Shown here: one piece after another, positions 42,287 to 48,487 of the stretch | Position numbering within the stretch: the first letter of the stretch is position 1 | Layout: each line of letters starts with the position of its first letter | DNA from: an uncultured Paraprevotella sp. | GTDB taxonomy: Bacteria > Bacteroidota > Bacteroidia > Bacteroidales > Bacteroidaceae | Assembly (NCBI GenBank): GCA_944321365.1 | Contig: CALULA010000004.1 | Location: 42,907 to 106,906, forward strand | Direction of reading: 5' to 3' | Length of the DNA: 64,000 bases | The notes under the pieces: model-generated | Seen by the model: the letters and a program-made list of their open reading frames with translations, nothing else | Told to the model about the DNA's origin: nothing | Databases searched by the model: none | Translations under genes and position numbers: made by a program

Positions 42287-45200
42287 TCACTTGGTCATCT
42301 TCTGGCCGTCCACGATGTAGATGCCGCGCTGCAGGCCGTCCAGTGCCTCGGCTTTCTTCACGCCGCTCTTCACCTTCACGCCGCTCAGGGTGTAGACGTC
42401 TACGGCTTTTGCGGAATCAGCTGCGCTCTCGCCCAGAACATCCTCAATGGCGGTCACTTCACCGTCGATGTCGATGAGCAGGCGGTTCACCTGTGATGCC
42501 TCATTTCCGCCCTCGACAGTGATATAGGCGCGGAAGCCGTTCAGGGTAACGTTGGCTTCTGCATCTGCCACGTAGAATACGTTGTCGCTGATGAAGTATG
42601 CGCCCTGCGGCACGGTGGTGGCGGAATAGTTACCAGTGATGTATACTTGTCCTACCGCATCGGCATAACCGATGGCCTGTGCCGTCGGAGCTGCTGCCTG
42701 AACCGTCACGCCTTCAACCTTGATTTCGGAAACGTTGCTGTTCACCTGGACGATGTACGGAACGCCTGCCTTCACACCGTCTGATACCGTTTCGGCAGTC
42801 AGAATGACGCTGTTGCCGCTGGTCGATACGCCGGAGAAGCGGCGCACTTCGCTGATGCCGTTGTCCGTGAGCTGTTCAGCCGTCATGTCGAAGGGCACGC
42901 AGAAGGTGTTCCACTTGCCGTCGGCCTTCAGGCTGCGCGTCAGGGTGACGTTGGCGTAGGTGTCGGCAGTCACACTGTAAGCCTGTGTCTCGTTCAAGGT
43001 CAGGTCTACGGCTACGGGAGCCAGTTTGTAGAGTTTCATGTCGTTACAGCCGACCCAGTTGGCATCGTTTCCTTCTTCTGTCTTTATGCCCAGCTGAACG
43101 CTTTCACCCTCATTTGAAGTTACAAGGAAAGCCACCTTATATACATTGTCCAATGTCCGTCCATCGGCGATGGCCTCACCCTTGATGTCACCGGCATATA
43201 TGGAAGCGGCCAATTTGTTTCTGTCGCCGATGTTTGCTCTTGTGCCGAAAGCTTTCAGTGTCATTTCGTAAGATCCTGCCGGGATTTGTACGGTCTGGTA
43301 CAGAACCCACGTGCCAGCTGCGAATTCTGAGTTCTGATAACTTTCATAGAACTGGCTCGGATCCCCGTTGTTGGCGAAATTGTTGCTCCAAGAATTGGTG
43401 CAAGACACCCAACCGAAAGAGGAAACCGTAGCTTTGGGTAGGTCTGTCACGTCCGGAGTGTTTAGCAGGAACGTCATGTCGAACTGCTGGTCACCGGTCG
43501 GGGTGGCTATTCGGGCGTAGGTCTGACGGGCAGTTTCCAGTGTGTTGTAGCACTCTTGCAAGGCTTCCACTGTAGTCAGGGCTTCGTAGCCTTCAGCCGC
43601 ACTGATGGCATCGCTGAGGGCGGTTCTGGCCGTTTCGTCAGCTACTCTGGAGTTGTCCACATAAGCCTGGCATTCCTGCAACAGGGCGGGCAGGGAAGTC
43701 TGGAGTTCGAATGCGGGAGCACATACGGCCATAGCCTCGTTGAGTGCGTTGTATGCCGTGTAATATTCAGCCGTAGTGGTCACCGGTTTTGCCAAAGCCT
43801 CATTCAGCTGAGTGGCAAAAGTCCCGGTCAGTTCGTCCTTGATGGCGTCGGCTTCAGCCTTCAGTGCGTCATACAGTGCTTTGATTTCGGTTGCGCCGTC
43901 GTTGACATAGGTCAGGCGGAAGTTGTCAAATTTGAGCGTTTCTGCGTCTTTTATCCATTCCACACCCATGGTAATCTGTCCGTCGATGACCAATACGTTG
44001 CCTACACTGCTTCTTTGGGCTTCCTTGTTCGCTGCCCATGACGCCAGAATGTCTGCGTCATCCATGGCACCGGTCCACTTGAACAGATAGGTCTGTTTCT
44101 GATAAGAACTTTCCAAGAACACCTGATTGCGGTCGCTTTGCGCGAAGCCAATCTGCACTGACATGGAGTATACACCGTTGGGCACTGCCATGGTCTGTGC
44201 CACGCGCCAGTTCCTTCCACCTTTTCTTACCATGTGTTCCGTCCCGTCTTCATTGGCATAGATGTCGGCGTCGGACAAACCGGTCCAGCCGTTAATCGGC
44301 GTTTCATCCTCAAATCCCGGATTCACTACCAATAATGTTGTGACGTCAAAGTTTGTCACACCCTCGTTCATGCCCGTGTTTGCGGCATAGTAGGTTTTGT
44401 ATGCGGCGGTCAGGATTTCGGCCTGTGCGGTCCATACCGTCTCATCGTCAGAAGCCAGGGCTGTGGCTGTCGCTGTGCTGATGGCACTCTGCAGAGTGGT
44501 CTTGGCGTCCTCTGCGGCTGCGAAAGCGGCCAGAACGGTTTCGGCATACTCTTTCGTGTCGAGGAACGCATCAGCGAACGGTTTCACTTTTGCTTGGGCT
44601 TCCTCTATGTTCACTTCAATCGCGTTGATGGCTGCGACGTATTCTTCTACCGTTGCGGGTGAACCGGAAGCCCCTTCGGTCAGTGCGTCCGTATAAGCCG
44701 TCGGCACTTTACCCTCCAGTTTTGTGGCTAAGGCTGTTGCTTCGGCTACTTTCGCTGTCAGGGCAATGGCATAGGCCGTCACATCGCTGCCGACAGACGT
44801 CAGCTTGACATTGGATATGGCTACCCAGTTGTTGCCGTTGTCGGCAGCAGCCTGCAGACCGATGCGCAGTGTGCCGTCGGTCACTATGCCCGTGGCGCTC
44901 ACTGTGCCCCAGACGTTGGTGGTCACTTGTGCGCGTCCGTCGTTGGCAAAGAGGTACAGGCCGTCCGCGCAGACGTCACCGCCGCCTTGGTTGCGCCCCA
45001 TGGCTACAGCCGTGATGGTGTATACACCGTTGGGCAGGTCTGTGATGTCCTGATAGATGAGGTCGGCATCCTGAGTGGCTCCGCCGGTCCAGAACTCTAT
45101 GCCTATGCCGGAGTAGTCATCGCTGTTCAGGGCTGAGTTGTTGACATTGTAGCTGGCCGAAGCGTTGGCACCGTCTTTTAACCAGCCGTCTCCCCCGGTG

Positions 45201-45406
45201 CAGTCTGCGTTGACGACTTTTGAAGCGGTGATGTCTTCCGATTGTCCGGCCGTTTCGTTTTCCTGTGATGTCGCATCATCAGGAGCGGCCCATGCGGTTG
45301 CGGTGATTCCGGTGGTTTTCTGCGTCGGAGTTGTACCCCAAGCACGCTGTACAGTCATGGTGGATGTGCCCATCAACACCGCCATGAATAGTAGTTTTGT
45401 TTTCAT
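42287..45406 (-). CDS. Large secreted protein: three CBM-like beta-sandwich repeats with helical linkers and a T9SS-type C-terminal domain
   Basis: Signal peptide; repeats YQDITDLPNGVY / AQTMAVPNGVY / YQTVQIPAGSY; WNTFCVPF domain; terminal TAIEDV...VYTLSGVKV...RGIYIVDGQK. Confidence 0.85.
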   Translation of the reverse strand: MKTKLLFMAVLMGTSTMTVQRAWGTTPTQKTTGITATAWAAPDDATSQENETAGQSEDITASKVVNADCTGGDGWLKDGANASASYNVNNSALNSDDYSGIGIEFWTGGATQDADLIYQDITDLPNGVYTITAVAMGRNQGGGDVCADGLYLFANDGRAQVTTNVWGTVSATGIVTDGTLRIGLQAAADNGNNWVAISNVKLTSVGSDVTAYAIALTAKVAEATALATKLEGKVPTAYTDALTEGASGSPATVEEYVAAINAIEVNIEEAQAKVKPFADAFLDTKEYAETVLAAFAAAEDAKTTLQSAISTATATALASDDETVWTAQAEILTAAYKTYYAANTGMNEGVTNFDVTTLLVVNPGFEDETPINGWTGLSDADIYANEDGTEHMVRKGGRNWRVAQTMAVPNGVYSMSVQIGFAQSDRNQVFLESSYQKQTYLFKWTGAMDDADILASWAANKEAQRSSVGNVLVIDGQITMGVEWIKDAETLKFDNFRLTYVNDGATEIKALYDALKAEADAIKDELTGTFATQLNEALAKPVTTTAEYYTAYNALNEAMAVCAPAFELQTSLPALLQECQAYVDNSRVADETARTALSDAISAAEGYEALTTVEALQECYNTLETARQTYARIATPTGDQQFDMTFLLNTPDVTDLPKATVSSFGWVSCTNSWSNNFANNGDPSQFYESYQNSEFAAGTWVLYQTVQIPAGSYEMTLKAFGTRANIGDRNKLAASIYAGDIKGEAIADGRTLDNVYKVAFLVTSNEGESVQLGIKTEEGNDANWVGCNDMKLYKLAPVAVDLTLNETQAYSVTADTYANVTLTRSLKADGKWNTFCVPFDMTAEQLTDNGISEVRRFSGVSTSGNSVILTAETVSDGVKAGVPYIVQVNSNVSEIKVEGVTVQAAAPTAQAIGYADAVGQVYITGNYSATTVPQGAYFISDNVFYVADAEANVTLNGFRAYITVEGGNEASQVNRLLIDIDGEVTAIEDVLGESAADSAKAVDVYTLSGVKVKSGVKKAEALDGLQRGIYIVDGQKMTK

Positions 45407-45553
45407 TCTTTTGGGTTTTAGAAATTAAGTTAATAATATGATTTAAACAGTCTTACTTTTCAAGTCTTGCCTGTTCGGGCGTGACGGAAGGCGTTTCATT
45501 CGGTCGTAATTTGCGCTTTTCATGCCCGCTTGTCCGGGAATACGGTTGTCCGC

Positions 45554-45765
45554 TCTCTTCGGAAGAGATACATCGAATGCACTATTGAGTGTATCTTTCG
45601 CAGCAAATATAGGATTTTCACAGAAAATATCCAACAGATTTCCGCCTTTTTTTAAAAAAAGTTTAGAAAACGGACGTCGTATGAGCAGATGTTCTCTGTT
45701 TGTTTCCTTGTAATCAACGGCTTGACGTCTGTTGTAAGGTTCGCGATGTATCTTTTCCGAAGAGA
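45554..45765. promoter_or_regulatory. Candidate invertible promoter 1 (ON toward the large T9SS-type gene)
   Basis: 22-bp inverted repeats with 21/22 identity (45554-45575, 45744-45765) enclose a minus-strand TTG-N20-TATATTTG promoter (-7 at 45604-45611). Confidence 0.7.
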
Positions 45766-45890
45766 AAGACAGACGTAAGGCATGTTGTATATCTTGATGG
45801 TTCTGTATTTGTGAGTTACTTTTCTTAGGGTTATATCACTCATTGCAGGGTGCTTCTTTGGGGAATGCTTATTCCATGGGTGTTTTTTTG

Positions 45891-45942
45891 TTGCGCAAAA
45901 CGTTCTGACGGTTTGTGCAAGCCATGCGGACATGTTGCGTCC
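45891..45942. repeat. 22-bp-period palindrome array (locus F)
   Basis: Cores at 45891 ttgcgcaa, 45913 ttgtgcaa, 45935 ttgcgtcc; extra atgcggac at 45924. Confidence 0.65.
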
Positions 45943-46128
45943 GATTGTTTCTTATGTGGGTTGTGGTGGTGGATTGTGAGAAGTACGGTGTACAGGTGTG
46001 TCTTGTTGTGGAGCTGGCCATAGTGCGGAGACAAGAAAATCGGAGGCTTGATTTTGTTTGAAAATGACCGGCAAAAAGTGGAGTGAAGTTGTAATAAGTG
46101 CTGAAAAAGAATGAGAAAAATCGTAGAA

Positions 46129-46298
46129 CTCTTAGTAAGAGATATATTTCTCTCTGCAAATATAGTGAATACGACAGTCTTTTCCAATCTTTTTGTTACA
46201 TATTTAAACAAATACGAGTGTAGGGCATCTGCTTATGTTGTTGATATACAATAGCCTGTTAAGGCTGGCCTTTGTTGCGGTATATCTCTTACTAAGAG
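46129..46298. promoter_or_regulatory. Candidate invertible promoter 2 (OFF relative to the 46328 lipoprotein gene)
   Basis: Perfect 18-bp inverted repeats (46129-46146, 46281-46298) enclose a minus-strand TTG-N20-TATATTTG promoter (-7 at 46157-46164). Confidence 0.78.
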
Positions 46299-46327
46299 AA
46301 CGCTTTCTTTCTGTGTGTTTGTAAGGT

Positions 46328-47290
46328 ATGAATCCAATGTGGTCTATGAAGAAACGAGTTGACAGTTGGCTTTGTGTCAGTATATATATAATAGGTATAG
46401 TGGGAACTGTTATGATTTCTTGTAATGGCAGTGGACGCCGTAAGGTGGAAGGCCGTCGGGCGATGTGCACTCCGTTGTTGGGCAAACAAGGGATGGATTG
46501 TCCGGTGGCGGAAGTGGCTTCTCCTGCCGGACAGGTCTCTTTGTTCCGATTTCACGAAGGGCGACTGGTCGGAGGATACAGTACCGACTATGGTGTGCTG
46601 ACTATTGATGTCAGGCCATTGGAGATGGAGGTGGAGGAGCGGACGGCGGGTTCCGTCCGTATGGCATCGGGGCATGCGGTGTATAGGCATATACGTATGA
46701 CGCAGGAGGGGTATGTTACCGCCATGAGCTTCAGGCAGCGGCATACAACCACGGCCGGGACTGGCTATGTGCGCAGCGGTTATGTCCATGCGTCGTATAC
46801 TTCGGAGGGGCAGATAAGTCGTTTGCAGTATGTGTATGACGACAGTCGCGGATTTCGTGCTAAAAACAGCATGAAGTATAGCTGGAAAGATGGCGATTTG
46901 CAGTACGTGGTGTCGGATTTCTTCCACTCGGATGATTTGTATGAAAAGCACTATATGATTTCTTTTGTCTATAGTGAGCCTGATACGCTCCTCCCCAACA
47001 GCGGCATCTACTGGGAGCAGATGATGCCGCCGTCTGGCGTGCTGCATGATTTCATGTGGTATGGCGGGATGCTGGGAAAGCCCACCGCGCATGTTCCGGT
47101 GCGGGTGCGCCGCGAGACGGTGGGCGACGGGACGCATCACAGCGAGCAGTGGGACATCCGTACAGAGCGTGATGACCATGGGCGTGTGTGCGCTGTTTAC
47201 TACGGCGACCGTCTGTACCGCAGGTATGCCTATGACCGGACGGGCTGTCCGGACAACGTGGCGGAGGATGGTCCGGGCGGTGCGGAATAA
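46328..47290 (+). CDS. Lipoprotein, DUF4595-like (paralog of 16066-17172)
   Basis: MISC lipobox; YSWKDGDL, PNSGIYW, WYGGMLGKPTAHVP; start could be at 46346. Confidence 0.72.
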   Translation: MNPMWSMKKRVDSWLCVSIYIIGIVGTVMISCNGSGRRKVEGRRAMCTPLLGKQGMDCPVAEVASPAGQVSLFRFHEGRLVGGYSTDYGVLTIDVRPLEMEVEERTAGSVRMASGHAVYRHIRMTQEGYVTAMSFRQRHTTTAGTGYVRSGYVHASYTSEGQISRLQYVYDDSRGFRAKNSMKYSWKDGDLQYVVSDFFHSDDLYEKHYMISFVYSEPDTLLPNSGIYWEQMMPPSGVLHDFMWYGGMLGKPTAHVPVRVRRETVGDGTHHSEQWDIRTERDDHGRVCAVYYGDRLYRRYAYDRTGCPDNVAEDGPGGAE

Positions 47291-47348
47291 ACCTGTTGCC
47301 CGATGGCGGAAGCATTGATTCTTTCCCCTTTTCCGCCCGGTGCACAGT

Positions 47349-47380
47349 ACCGCCGCCGGCAGAGGTCCGGCGGCGGTTTT
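47349..47380 (+). terminator. Terminator after the 46328 gene
   Basis: ACCGCCGCCGG-cagaggt-CCGGCGGCGGT followed by TTT. Confidence 0.75.
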
Positions 47381-47397
47381 CTGTGGGGCGGGACGTG

Positions 47398-47491
47398 ACA
47401 AAAGAAATGCGGGCCGCTTCCCAGCGACCCGCATTCTTTAGTTTTTTAGGTATTAGTTTTGTTTAAGGTAAAAAGATTGTTTTCAGGATAA
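47398..47491 (-). ncRNA. Candidate ~95-nt sRNA
   Basis: TTG-N20-TATCTTTG promoter (-7 at 47497-47504), AU-rich body, 13-bp GGGA-tetraloop terminator 47406-47435 with UCUUUU tail. Confidence 0.55.
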
Positions 47492-47587
47492 CGATGCAAA
47501 GATAAGCCCAATTTTATGGGCATGCAAGTAATTAATTATGCTTTATAGCATGTTTTGTATAAAACCTTGCATTTTCCTTAAATTTCC

Positions 47588-48487
47588 TTATCCGATTCCG
47601 TCTTTCTGTTCTTCCGTCAGGTGAAAACGGGTGATCTCCTGTATGGGTTCCTGCAGGATGTGTCCGATGTCGTAACCGGCTGCATATACTGCTGCAGACA
47701 GTTCGTCACGGAAGTGCCATGCGATGCTTCCCACGAAATGGATGGGAAGGTGCCCCGGAGCGTAGGGGGCTACATTTCGTTGCAAAAAGCTGTTAAAACA
47801 GTCGTACAACAGCGTATGTAGAGCAGGGTGTGTGCGGTGTTCATACACGAACGGAGCCAGTGAGGCCAGGAAGCGGTTGGCTTCCGGCTCACGGTATACC
47901 CGGCGGATGATGTCGGCTTCGCTGAGGCCGAACGTCTCGTGGAACTGCCGGCGGATCTCGTCAGGCAGAAGTCCTTTCAGGACATCAGCCACCAGCCGTT
48001 TGCCTATGGCCGTACCACTGCCTTCGTCTCCCAGAATGTAGCCCAGCGGCGGAGTCTGCTGTATGATGCTTTTGCCGTCATAGCGGCAGGAGTTGGATCC
48101 GGTGCCCAATATGCAGGCAATGCCGGGGGTGTGCCCACAGAGGGCGCGGGCCGCTCCCAACAGATCGGAGTCTGCTGATACATCAGCCAGTCCCATGGTC
48201 TGCCGGAGCAGATCTGCCATGCGCTGTCTCACGAAAGGCAGGCATCCTGCGCCATAATAAAATAAGGTAATGGCAGAGTCTTTATCCGGCAGTAAGGCTT
48301 TCAGTTGTGGACTTACCTCTGTCTGCAATATGGCAGTCAGGGTGGCATCGTCTTGCAGGGCCGGGTTCATGCCGCGACTGACAAACGTATGTTGCTGCCC
48401 TCCGGAGAGGGTCAGTTGCCAGGCGGTTTTGGTGGACCCGCCGTCGGCTACCAGCAAATGTACGAGGTTATGATGTTGCATTTTCAT
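47588..48487 (-). CDS. BadF/BcrA-family ASKHA sugar kinase (GlcNAc/MurNAc kinase-like)
   Basis: ADGGSTKT, GMNP, YYGAGC, ILGTGSNS, LGDEGSG, VGSIA. Confidence 0.85.
   Translation of the reverse strand: MKMQHHNLVHLLVADGGSTKTAWQLTLSGGQQHTFVSRGMNPALQDDATLTAILQTEVSPQLKALLPDKDSAITLFYYGAGCLPFVRQRMADLLRQTMGLADVSADSDLLGAARALCGHTPGIACILGTGSNSCRYDGKSIIQQTPPLGYILGDEGSGTAIGKRLVADVLKGLLPDEIRRQFHETFGLSEADIIRRVYREPEANRFLASLAPFVYEHRTHPALHTLLYDCFNSFLQRNVAPYAPGHLPIHFVGSIAWHFRDELSAAVYAAGYDIGHILQEPIQEITRFHLTEEQKDGIG

Follow-up and report, generated by a model that had tools for sequence, protein, structure and literature searches.

The window analysed here is a 64-kb stretch of contig C4 from a Paraprevotella genome of 2.7 Mb with 52% G+C. 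It contains a 920-bp intergenic region lying between two divergent genes, 42287-45406 on the minus strand and 46328-47290 on the plus strand, and this region holds two pairs of inverted repeats, designated switch 1 and switch 2. The features of the region, in order, are as follows.

42287-45406, minus strand: gene for a 1039-aa secreted protein with a DUF5013 match, served by switch 1
45554-45765: switch 1, with 22-nt arms at 45554-45575 and 45744-45765 (one mismatch) around a 168-bp segment
45604-45611, minus strand: -7 box of switch 1, facing the 1039-aa gene in the reference
45766-46128: spacer of 363 bp between the two switches, without a conserved gene or a repeat array
46129-46146: left inverted repeat of switch 2, 18 nt, arms 100% complementary in an inverted-repeat search; holds the core ACTCTTAGTAAGAGA at 46128-46142
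46147-46280: invertible segment of switch 2, 134 bp between the arms
46157-46164, minus strand: -7 box TATATTTG of switch 2, of the Bacteroidetes promoter consensus, 14 nt from the core and pointing left through the left repeat
46185-46187, minus strand: TTG of a -33-like element, 20 nt upstream of the -7 box, read from the sequence; a sigma-70-type scan flags the same site
46252-46267, plus strand (the strand of the gene, in the reference orientation): weak terminator-like hairpin in the switch 2 segment, 6 pairs, 3 of them G-C, of putative function
46281-46298: right inverted repeat of switch 2, 18 nt; holds the core TCTCTTACTAAGAGA at 46285-46299
46328-47290, plus strand: lipoprotein gene, likely start ATG 46346 (MKKR...), lipobox VMISC, beta-rich product with a weak likeness to DUF4595
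47349-47377, plus strand: strong intrinsic terminator after the lipoprotein gene, 11 pairs, 10 of them G-C, with a T-run

The sequence-only reading of this DNA had described perfect 18-nt inverted repeats around a 134-bp segment whose promoter faces away from the adjoining gene, and both parts of that description were borne out. The repeat of switch 2 reads CTCTTAGTAAGAGATATA; by simple arithmetic, the chance of a perfect 18-mer inverted pair less than 600 bp apart in a 64-kb window is about 6e-4. The promoter has the form TTG-N20-TATATTTG on the minus strand and faces outward through one repeat, as in Bacteroidetes-type TTTG / TAnnTTTG promoters. TATATTTG is the sole TAnnTTTG box in the segment and is directed away from the lipoprotein gene at 46328. 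The intergenic region contains two TAnnTTTG boxes, both on the minus strand (45604-45611 and 46157-46164), and a pattern search found no plus-strand copy at 45400-47453, a range wider than the 45766-46328 for which its absence had been claimed. Inversion of the segment in silico moves the box to 46263-46270, upstream of the ATG at 46328 by 57 nt and of the likelier start at 46346 by 75 nt, in agreement with the earlier prediction that a flip would place the promoter just upstream of the ATG.

The product of the gene at 46328-47290 belongs to a very small family. Only two homologue clusters exist among 5.8 billion proteins, and the near-identical one has 38 members; an exact look-up of the 320-aa ORF product gave no match, gene callers starting later, and the cluster members matched are of 292, 314 and 317 aa. 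A related-locus search of metagenome contigs confirmed no relatives of the lipoprotein. Its Pfam match to DUF4595 is sub-threshold, and its AlphaFold model, built from a 7-sequence alignment, is all-beta and poor (mean pLDDT 54.7). The fold matches of this predicted model are weak, the best (TM-score 0.37-0.45) being to 3tzg and 4ghb, 'porin-like' structures of DUF4595, and others to Rhs/teneurin shells, and they may be taken to agree loosely with the sub-threshold DUF4595 match. The terminator at 47349-47377 follows the gene, which indicates a single-gene unit. The only distant homologue (38% identity) comes from another organism (locus L116) and a different gene neighbourhood. A switch lies directly upstream of that homologue gene as well, with 25-nt perfect repeats, the core TCTCTTGGTAAGAGA and the N14 spacing kept. 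Since this homologue has its own switch of the same design, the pairing of the lipoprotein family with this switch type is conserved in two organisms. For the 1039-aa protein on the other side of the intergenic region, DUF5013 is the sole Pfam match; no NCBIfam model matched at E <= 0.001, and hence no type IX secretion tail model.

The sequence-only reading had placed a repeat array in the spacer between the two switches, which did not hold: Tandem Repeats Finder reported none, and a low-threshold direct-repeat search returned a single 10-nt pair. A 93-aa minus-strand ORF (45652-45933) called by some pipelines was rejected as a gene, its frame being broken between strains by poly-T lengths; several strains have 1 or 2 more bases in the poly-T run near 45882 than the reference does. 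No known RNA family was matched in either switch or in the spacer by Rfam. Outside them, Rfam matched BTnc060, a Bacteroides sRNA family, at 47404-47600 on the minus strand (95 bits, E = 2.8e-15), a match that falls short of the gathering score and is truncated where the searched stretch ends. The intergenic DNA had no match in 40 related genomes, so the locus is species-specific at the DNA level.

Same-species contigs from public metagenomes show that switch 2 inverts in nature. Thirty such contigs from many samples were collected via look-ups of eight members of the near-identical lipoprotein cluster. BLAST of the inner segments placed switch 2 in the reference orientation in 24 of 28 contigs, which come from independent metagenome assemblies and are 97.8-100% identical, and in the exact predicted flip in the other four (L010, L017, L018 and, in part, L032), where the orientation of a contig represents the majority state per sample and says nothing of switching rates. 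The inversion junctions in the flipped contigs coincide exactly with the repeats. L010, L017 and L018 each differ from the in-silico flip by 2 mismatches, and those of L017 and L018 are the two SNPs of the un-flipped L013, which encodes a protein identical to that of L017 and L018. With SNPs in common and orientations that differ, L013 and L017/L018 represent one lineage found in both states. In addition, the 58-kb contig behind L006 stops precisely at the first base of the right repeat of switch 2. Switch 2 is a genuine, naturally inverting promoter segment of the Bacteroidales inverton type. Switch 1 was in the reference orientation in 17 contigs and inverted in 6 (L010 in part, L012, L014-L016 and L031). 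Where both switches could be read, 15 contigs had both in the reference orientation, 5 had switch 1 inverted only, 2 had switch 2 inverted only and 1 had both inverted. All four combinations are therefore present with no sign of linkage, and the coupling of the two switches put forward in the sequence-only reading found no support.

Both switches contain the core TCTCTTnnnAAGAGA, which occurs 13 times without mismatch in the genome, compared with 0-2 times for seven permuted controls. In each repeat an asymmetric 3-nt centre (AGT / ACT) separates the half-sites TCTCTT and AAGAGA, and the 18-nt repeats are complete recombination sites. In this genome the TCTCTTnnnAAGAGA sites are paired, 157-197 bp apart and with complementary centres. 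Four pairs are intact (two on C4 and two on C5), two are split between contigs (C1 start and C16 end; C13 end and C25 start; complementary centres ACG/CGT and ATG/CAT), and two sites are singletons at contig ends (C19 start and C21 end); together they make up at least eight switches, several of them at contig ends. Six contig ends fall on TCTCTTnnnAAGAGA cores, at core-to-end distances compatible with a 77-mer assembly graph that presumably branched at the core, which points to a mixture of orientations in the sequenced material as the cause of these breaks. The contig-end switches (C1, C16, C13, C25, C19 and C21) adjoin genes for large signal-peptide proteins of 1302, 938 and 851 aa. All four intact switches have exactly one outward TAnnTTTG box near one arm, the genome background being 0.31 per kb per strand, and the genes adjoining the switches mostly start with signal peptides. 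In 24 further genomes from the genus there are either 0-1 or 4-28 copies of the core, the pairs having complementary centres and a spacing of 150-210 bp. Of 200 genomes sampled evenly across the order, the majority contain 0-4 copies, and at least 10 are found only in this genome and one other.

Natural sequence markers in the repeats narrow down the crossover. In switch 1 a single base of the inner half-site distinguishes the two repeats (AAGAGA vs AAAAGA), and in the inverted contigs L012 and L014-L016 the mismatch base has moved to the opposite junction with the segment. In switch 2 it is core position 1 that differs between the outer half-sites (A vs T), and this base remains with the flank in L017. 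Since the switch 1 marker moves with the segment and the switch 2 marker stays behind, strand exchange takes place within CTCTTnnnAA, an exchange region of about 10 nt that fits a tyrosine-recombinase overlap centred on the 3-nt spacer. Because a 3-nt centre can never equal its reverse complement, each site has a polarity, and by the tyrosine recombinase mechanism two inverted sites give inversion and not deletion; with its two sites in inverted orientation, recombination at switch 2 flips the segment and does not delete it. The inner half-site of the switch 1 right repeat (45744-45765) is strain-variable, reading TCTTTT, TTTCTT or the perfect TCTCTT, and such strain differences might change switching rates.

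No recombinase gene was recognised among the ORFs adjoining the switches. A serine invertase of the Mpi type was rejected, as the genome has no PF00239 / Resolvase-family match. Five tyrosine recombinases are present, namely XerC and XerD (which both exceed the NCBIfam cut-offs), an integrase at the start of C3 that is truncated, and two paralogues of about 400 aa on C7 and C14. The features on the last two contigs are as follows.

C14, 3327-4532: tyrosine recombinase of 401 aa with Arm-binding, SAM-like and catalytic domains
C7 (L019), 1768-1792 and 1952-1976: repeat pair of a second, different inverton class

The 405-aa recombinase on C7 (521-1738) is followed by its own 25-nt perfect repeat pair, TTGTTGTATATTATGAAGCGACGGA, with 159 bp between the arms. 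It is an unlikely enzyme for switch 2, the repeat pair beside it being a different one. The ORF after the C7 repeats resembles, by eye, a UpxY-type capsule-locus regulator. The C14 recombinase, of which the closest named relatives are from Paraprevotella xylaniphila and uncultured Paraprevotella MAGs, aligns over its full length with the invertases of IP-ARG-2 (46% identity, E = 2e-130) and IP-ARG-3 (48% identity, E = 9e-137). Its homologues were followed through 80 Bacteroidales loci from species-representative genomes (mostly 53-60% identical; Bacteroides, Prevotella, Phocaeicola, Parabacteroides, Dysgonomonas, Alistipes, Odoribacter and other genera). In 54 of the 80 a TCTCTTnnnAAGAGA site or pair lies downstream of the stop codon of the homologue, at a distance of about 20-400 nt and often 20-50 nt, and the 841 kb of homologue loci contain 79 such sites where about 0.05 would be expected by chance. 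The switches at these loci keep the spacing of switch 2 (core-N14-CAAAnnTA), and nearly all face the recombinase gene, i.e. are in the off state. The loci link the recombinase family of C14 to the TCTCTTnnnAAGAGA-type site. Their cargo comprises NusG/UpxY-like regulators, DUF3575, OmpA-family proteins, SNF2/ResIII helicase, DUF6079 and an Hsp70-like protein. At L048, L050, L056 and L095, from other Bacteroidales, the switches lie beside the invertase and before genes for SNF2/ResIII helicase, DUF6079 proteins and an Hsp70-like protein, a cargo that might be a putative phase-variable phage defence.

In the present genome the C14 gene is on another contig than the window and has no adjoining switch, and its Paraprevotella homologues (L036-L040) are likewise without a site within their flanks. 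Within the genus, nine of nine other genomes with a homologue of at least 60% identity have 5-28 sites and four genomes without a homologue have none, and genomes with homologues of 46-59% are mixed; homologue identity is thus an imperfect guide to site count. The cultivable P. xylaniphila and P. clara have 26-28 sites together with recombinase orthologues of 71-72% identity. On the basis of association and elimination, C14 is most likely the invertase of switch 2.

We propose, with a probability of roughly 85%, that switch 2 is a phase variation device in which a tyrosine recombinase inverts the 134-bp segment carrying the only consensus promoter of the lipoprotein gene. The unlinked C14 recombinase would act in trans on the at least eight switches with the same core, each of which adjoins a gene for a secreted or surface protein. 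As oriented in the reference, the promoter would fire leftward, away from the gene, and the lipoprotein would be off or at a basal level. After inversion, with the -7 box at 46263-46270, transcription would begin some 7 nt downstream of TATATTTG, run through the right repeat into the gene and give a leader of about 50-70 nt. We infer from the arrangement of promoter and gene that orientation sets the expression of the lipoprotein, and that in the reference orientation the gene is off or basal, since its only consensus promoter faces away.

Inverted forms that are assembly artefacts, or ancient rearrangements that became fixed, would simulate such a device without active switching. The orientations do come from assembled contigs and not from reads, and switch 1 is inverted in all four samples of one SNP lineage (L012, L014-L016). 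Repeats of just 18-22 nt should nevertheless be below typical assembly k-mers, the same exact junctions recur in contigs whose naming styles suggest several assembly pipelines, L013 and L017/L018 share their SNPs and differ in orientation alone, and contigs break exactly at the repeats both in some samples and in this genome's own assembly. The published family has moreover been found invertible by experiment (PMC8748976), and we regard an artefactual or fixed origin as extremely improbable. A different objection concerns expression, in that the lipoprotein gene might be constitutive from a fixed non-consensus promoter, the switch merely adding to or modulating its level. A one-mismatch box, TGTGTTTG, does lie at 46314-46321, in DNA that does not invert and 24 nt ahead of the likely start (46346), and basal transcription could arise from it. 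Its mismatch, however, affects the A at position 2 of TAnnTTTG, a base that is strongly conserved, and one-mismatch boxes are common (about 5 per kb per strand). That two organisms have a switch paired with a gene of this family points to the switch as the principal control, and constitutive expression appears improbable.

The preferred reading, an invertible promoter that turns the lipoprotein gene on and off, could carry a further layer if the away-facing promoter of switch 2 transcribed leftward over the spacer, through switch 1 and on into the 1039-aa gene. Switch 1, when inverted, would similarly fire at the lipoprotein gene, and the level of each gene would depend on both switches. Such cross-talk is compatible with the main explanation. 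The switches are only 363 bp apart between divergent genes, and no terminator-like site is predicted on the minus strand between 46150 and 45470, so that leftward read-through is possible; the three hairpins with T-rich tails that are predicted, at 45837-45852, 45927-45943 and 46252-46267, are weak and on the plus strand. These hairpins are, however, no commoner than in shuffled sequence, the spacer contains neither a repeat array nor a conserved ORF, and the two orientations vary in an unlinked manner (15, 5, 2 and 1 contigs). At L116 the promoter of the homologous switch also points away from its gene and no gene is called within 1.3 kb on that side, which speaks for the away-facing state being just an off state. 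Across most loci of the wider family, the promoter in its away position reads into the recombinase gene from the 3' end, so the away state is normally without a target. We consider cross-talk possible but rather unlikely. A still more elaborate version, in which the back-to-back switches form a two-bit unit whose four states give four graded patterns of two surface proteins under a single orphan 'master' invertase, is speculative and in our view distinctly unlikely. If it were true, the 1039-aa gene would be fed by switch 2 in its reference state and the lipoprotein gene by switch 1 in its inverted state, the tyrosine invertase would have become detached from its ancestral local switch in Paraprevotella, and the choices would not be independent on/off decisions.

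The locus is a clean example, at the level of sequence, of phase variation in an uncultured Paraprevotella of the gut, documented in natural populations, with the recombination core TCTCTTnnnAAGAGA defined and the crossover narrowed to about 10 nt by natural markers. One unlinked recombinase is the probable controller of at least eight surface-protein switches. For annotation, a simple motif suffices to recognise such intergenic elements and the contig breaks that they cause; for the reading of metagenomes, orientation can be treated as a trait that is heritable yet reversible.

The closest known systems are the invertible promoters of the IP-ARG / glycan-locus clade, catalogued with PhaseFinder by Yan, Hall and Jiang in 2022 (PMC8748976), where two adjacent invertible regions with similar repeats were also noted. 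The core motif as text is absent from the main papers searched and was found in a supplementary table of that study, Supplementary Data 2, which lists the repeat of IP-ARG-1 (TCTCTCTTTAAGAGA), those of IP-ARG-2 (ATCTCTCTTTAAGAGATGT and ATCTCTCCGTAAGAGATGT) and that of IP-ARG-3 (TCTCCTTCTAGGAGA) and also gives the invertase sequences. The likeness extends to the enzyme, C14 being homologous to the published invertases over the full length (46-48%); to the sites, which are of the TCTCT(C/T)-nnn-AAGAGA type in both (published TCTCTCTTTAAGAGA, ATCTCTCCGTAAGAGATGT and TCTCCTTCTAGGAGA, compared with TCTCTTnnnAAGAGA here); and to the layout, a segment of about 130-200 bp with a TAnnTTTG promoter near one arm and most copies in the off orientation. 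Given these published repeats and homologous invertases, the switch type and the enzyme family were already known. The differences are that the published invertase lies immediately upstream of its switch, often on a conjugative element, whereas here it is unlinked and apparently serves at least eight scattered chromosomal switches; that the published cargo consists of glycan-synthesis or resistance genes and here of a rare lipoprotein; and that the two neighbouring switches here serve two divergent genes, not one operon.

Three further systems share parts of this design. In Bacteroides fragilis, the master tyrosine invertases Tsr19/BF2766 and Tsr0667 act on local and distant promoters, each orientation combination giving a distinct phenotype (PMC4747536). 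As proposed here, one tyrosine recombinase thereby governs several distant promoters, in that case of surface proteins and polysaccharides, but the motif of the Tsr19 switches, TACTTNNNANGTAANNGAA, is absent from the switch 2 repeats. The BT1927 S-layer/lipoprotein loci of Bacteroides thetaiotaomicron (PMC4611039; bioRxiv 10.1101/521070) resemble switch 2 in that an invertible promoter controls an outer-membrane lipoprotein; their sites are imperfect palindromes, the promoter is off in the assembled genome, and mutation of a half-site locks the switch. Their consensus is GTTAC-N7-GTAAC, however, and not the TCTCTT-N3-AAGAGA found here, the regulated proteins are unrelated, and the recombinases BT1928/BT1929 (Tsr26 homologues) adjoin the switch. 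The Mpi regulon of B. fragilis, which comprises capsular polysaccharide promoters, likewise has one enzyme in global trans control of many invertible promoters, but Mpi is a serine recombinase and the present genome is without a Resolvase-family gene. Set beside these systems, switch 2 reveals no new mechanism and is an ordinary though well-documented case of Bacteroidales phase variation. It differs from what has been published in its unlinked, apparently multi-target invertase, its different cargo and the back-to-back arrangement of two switches between divergent genes.
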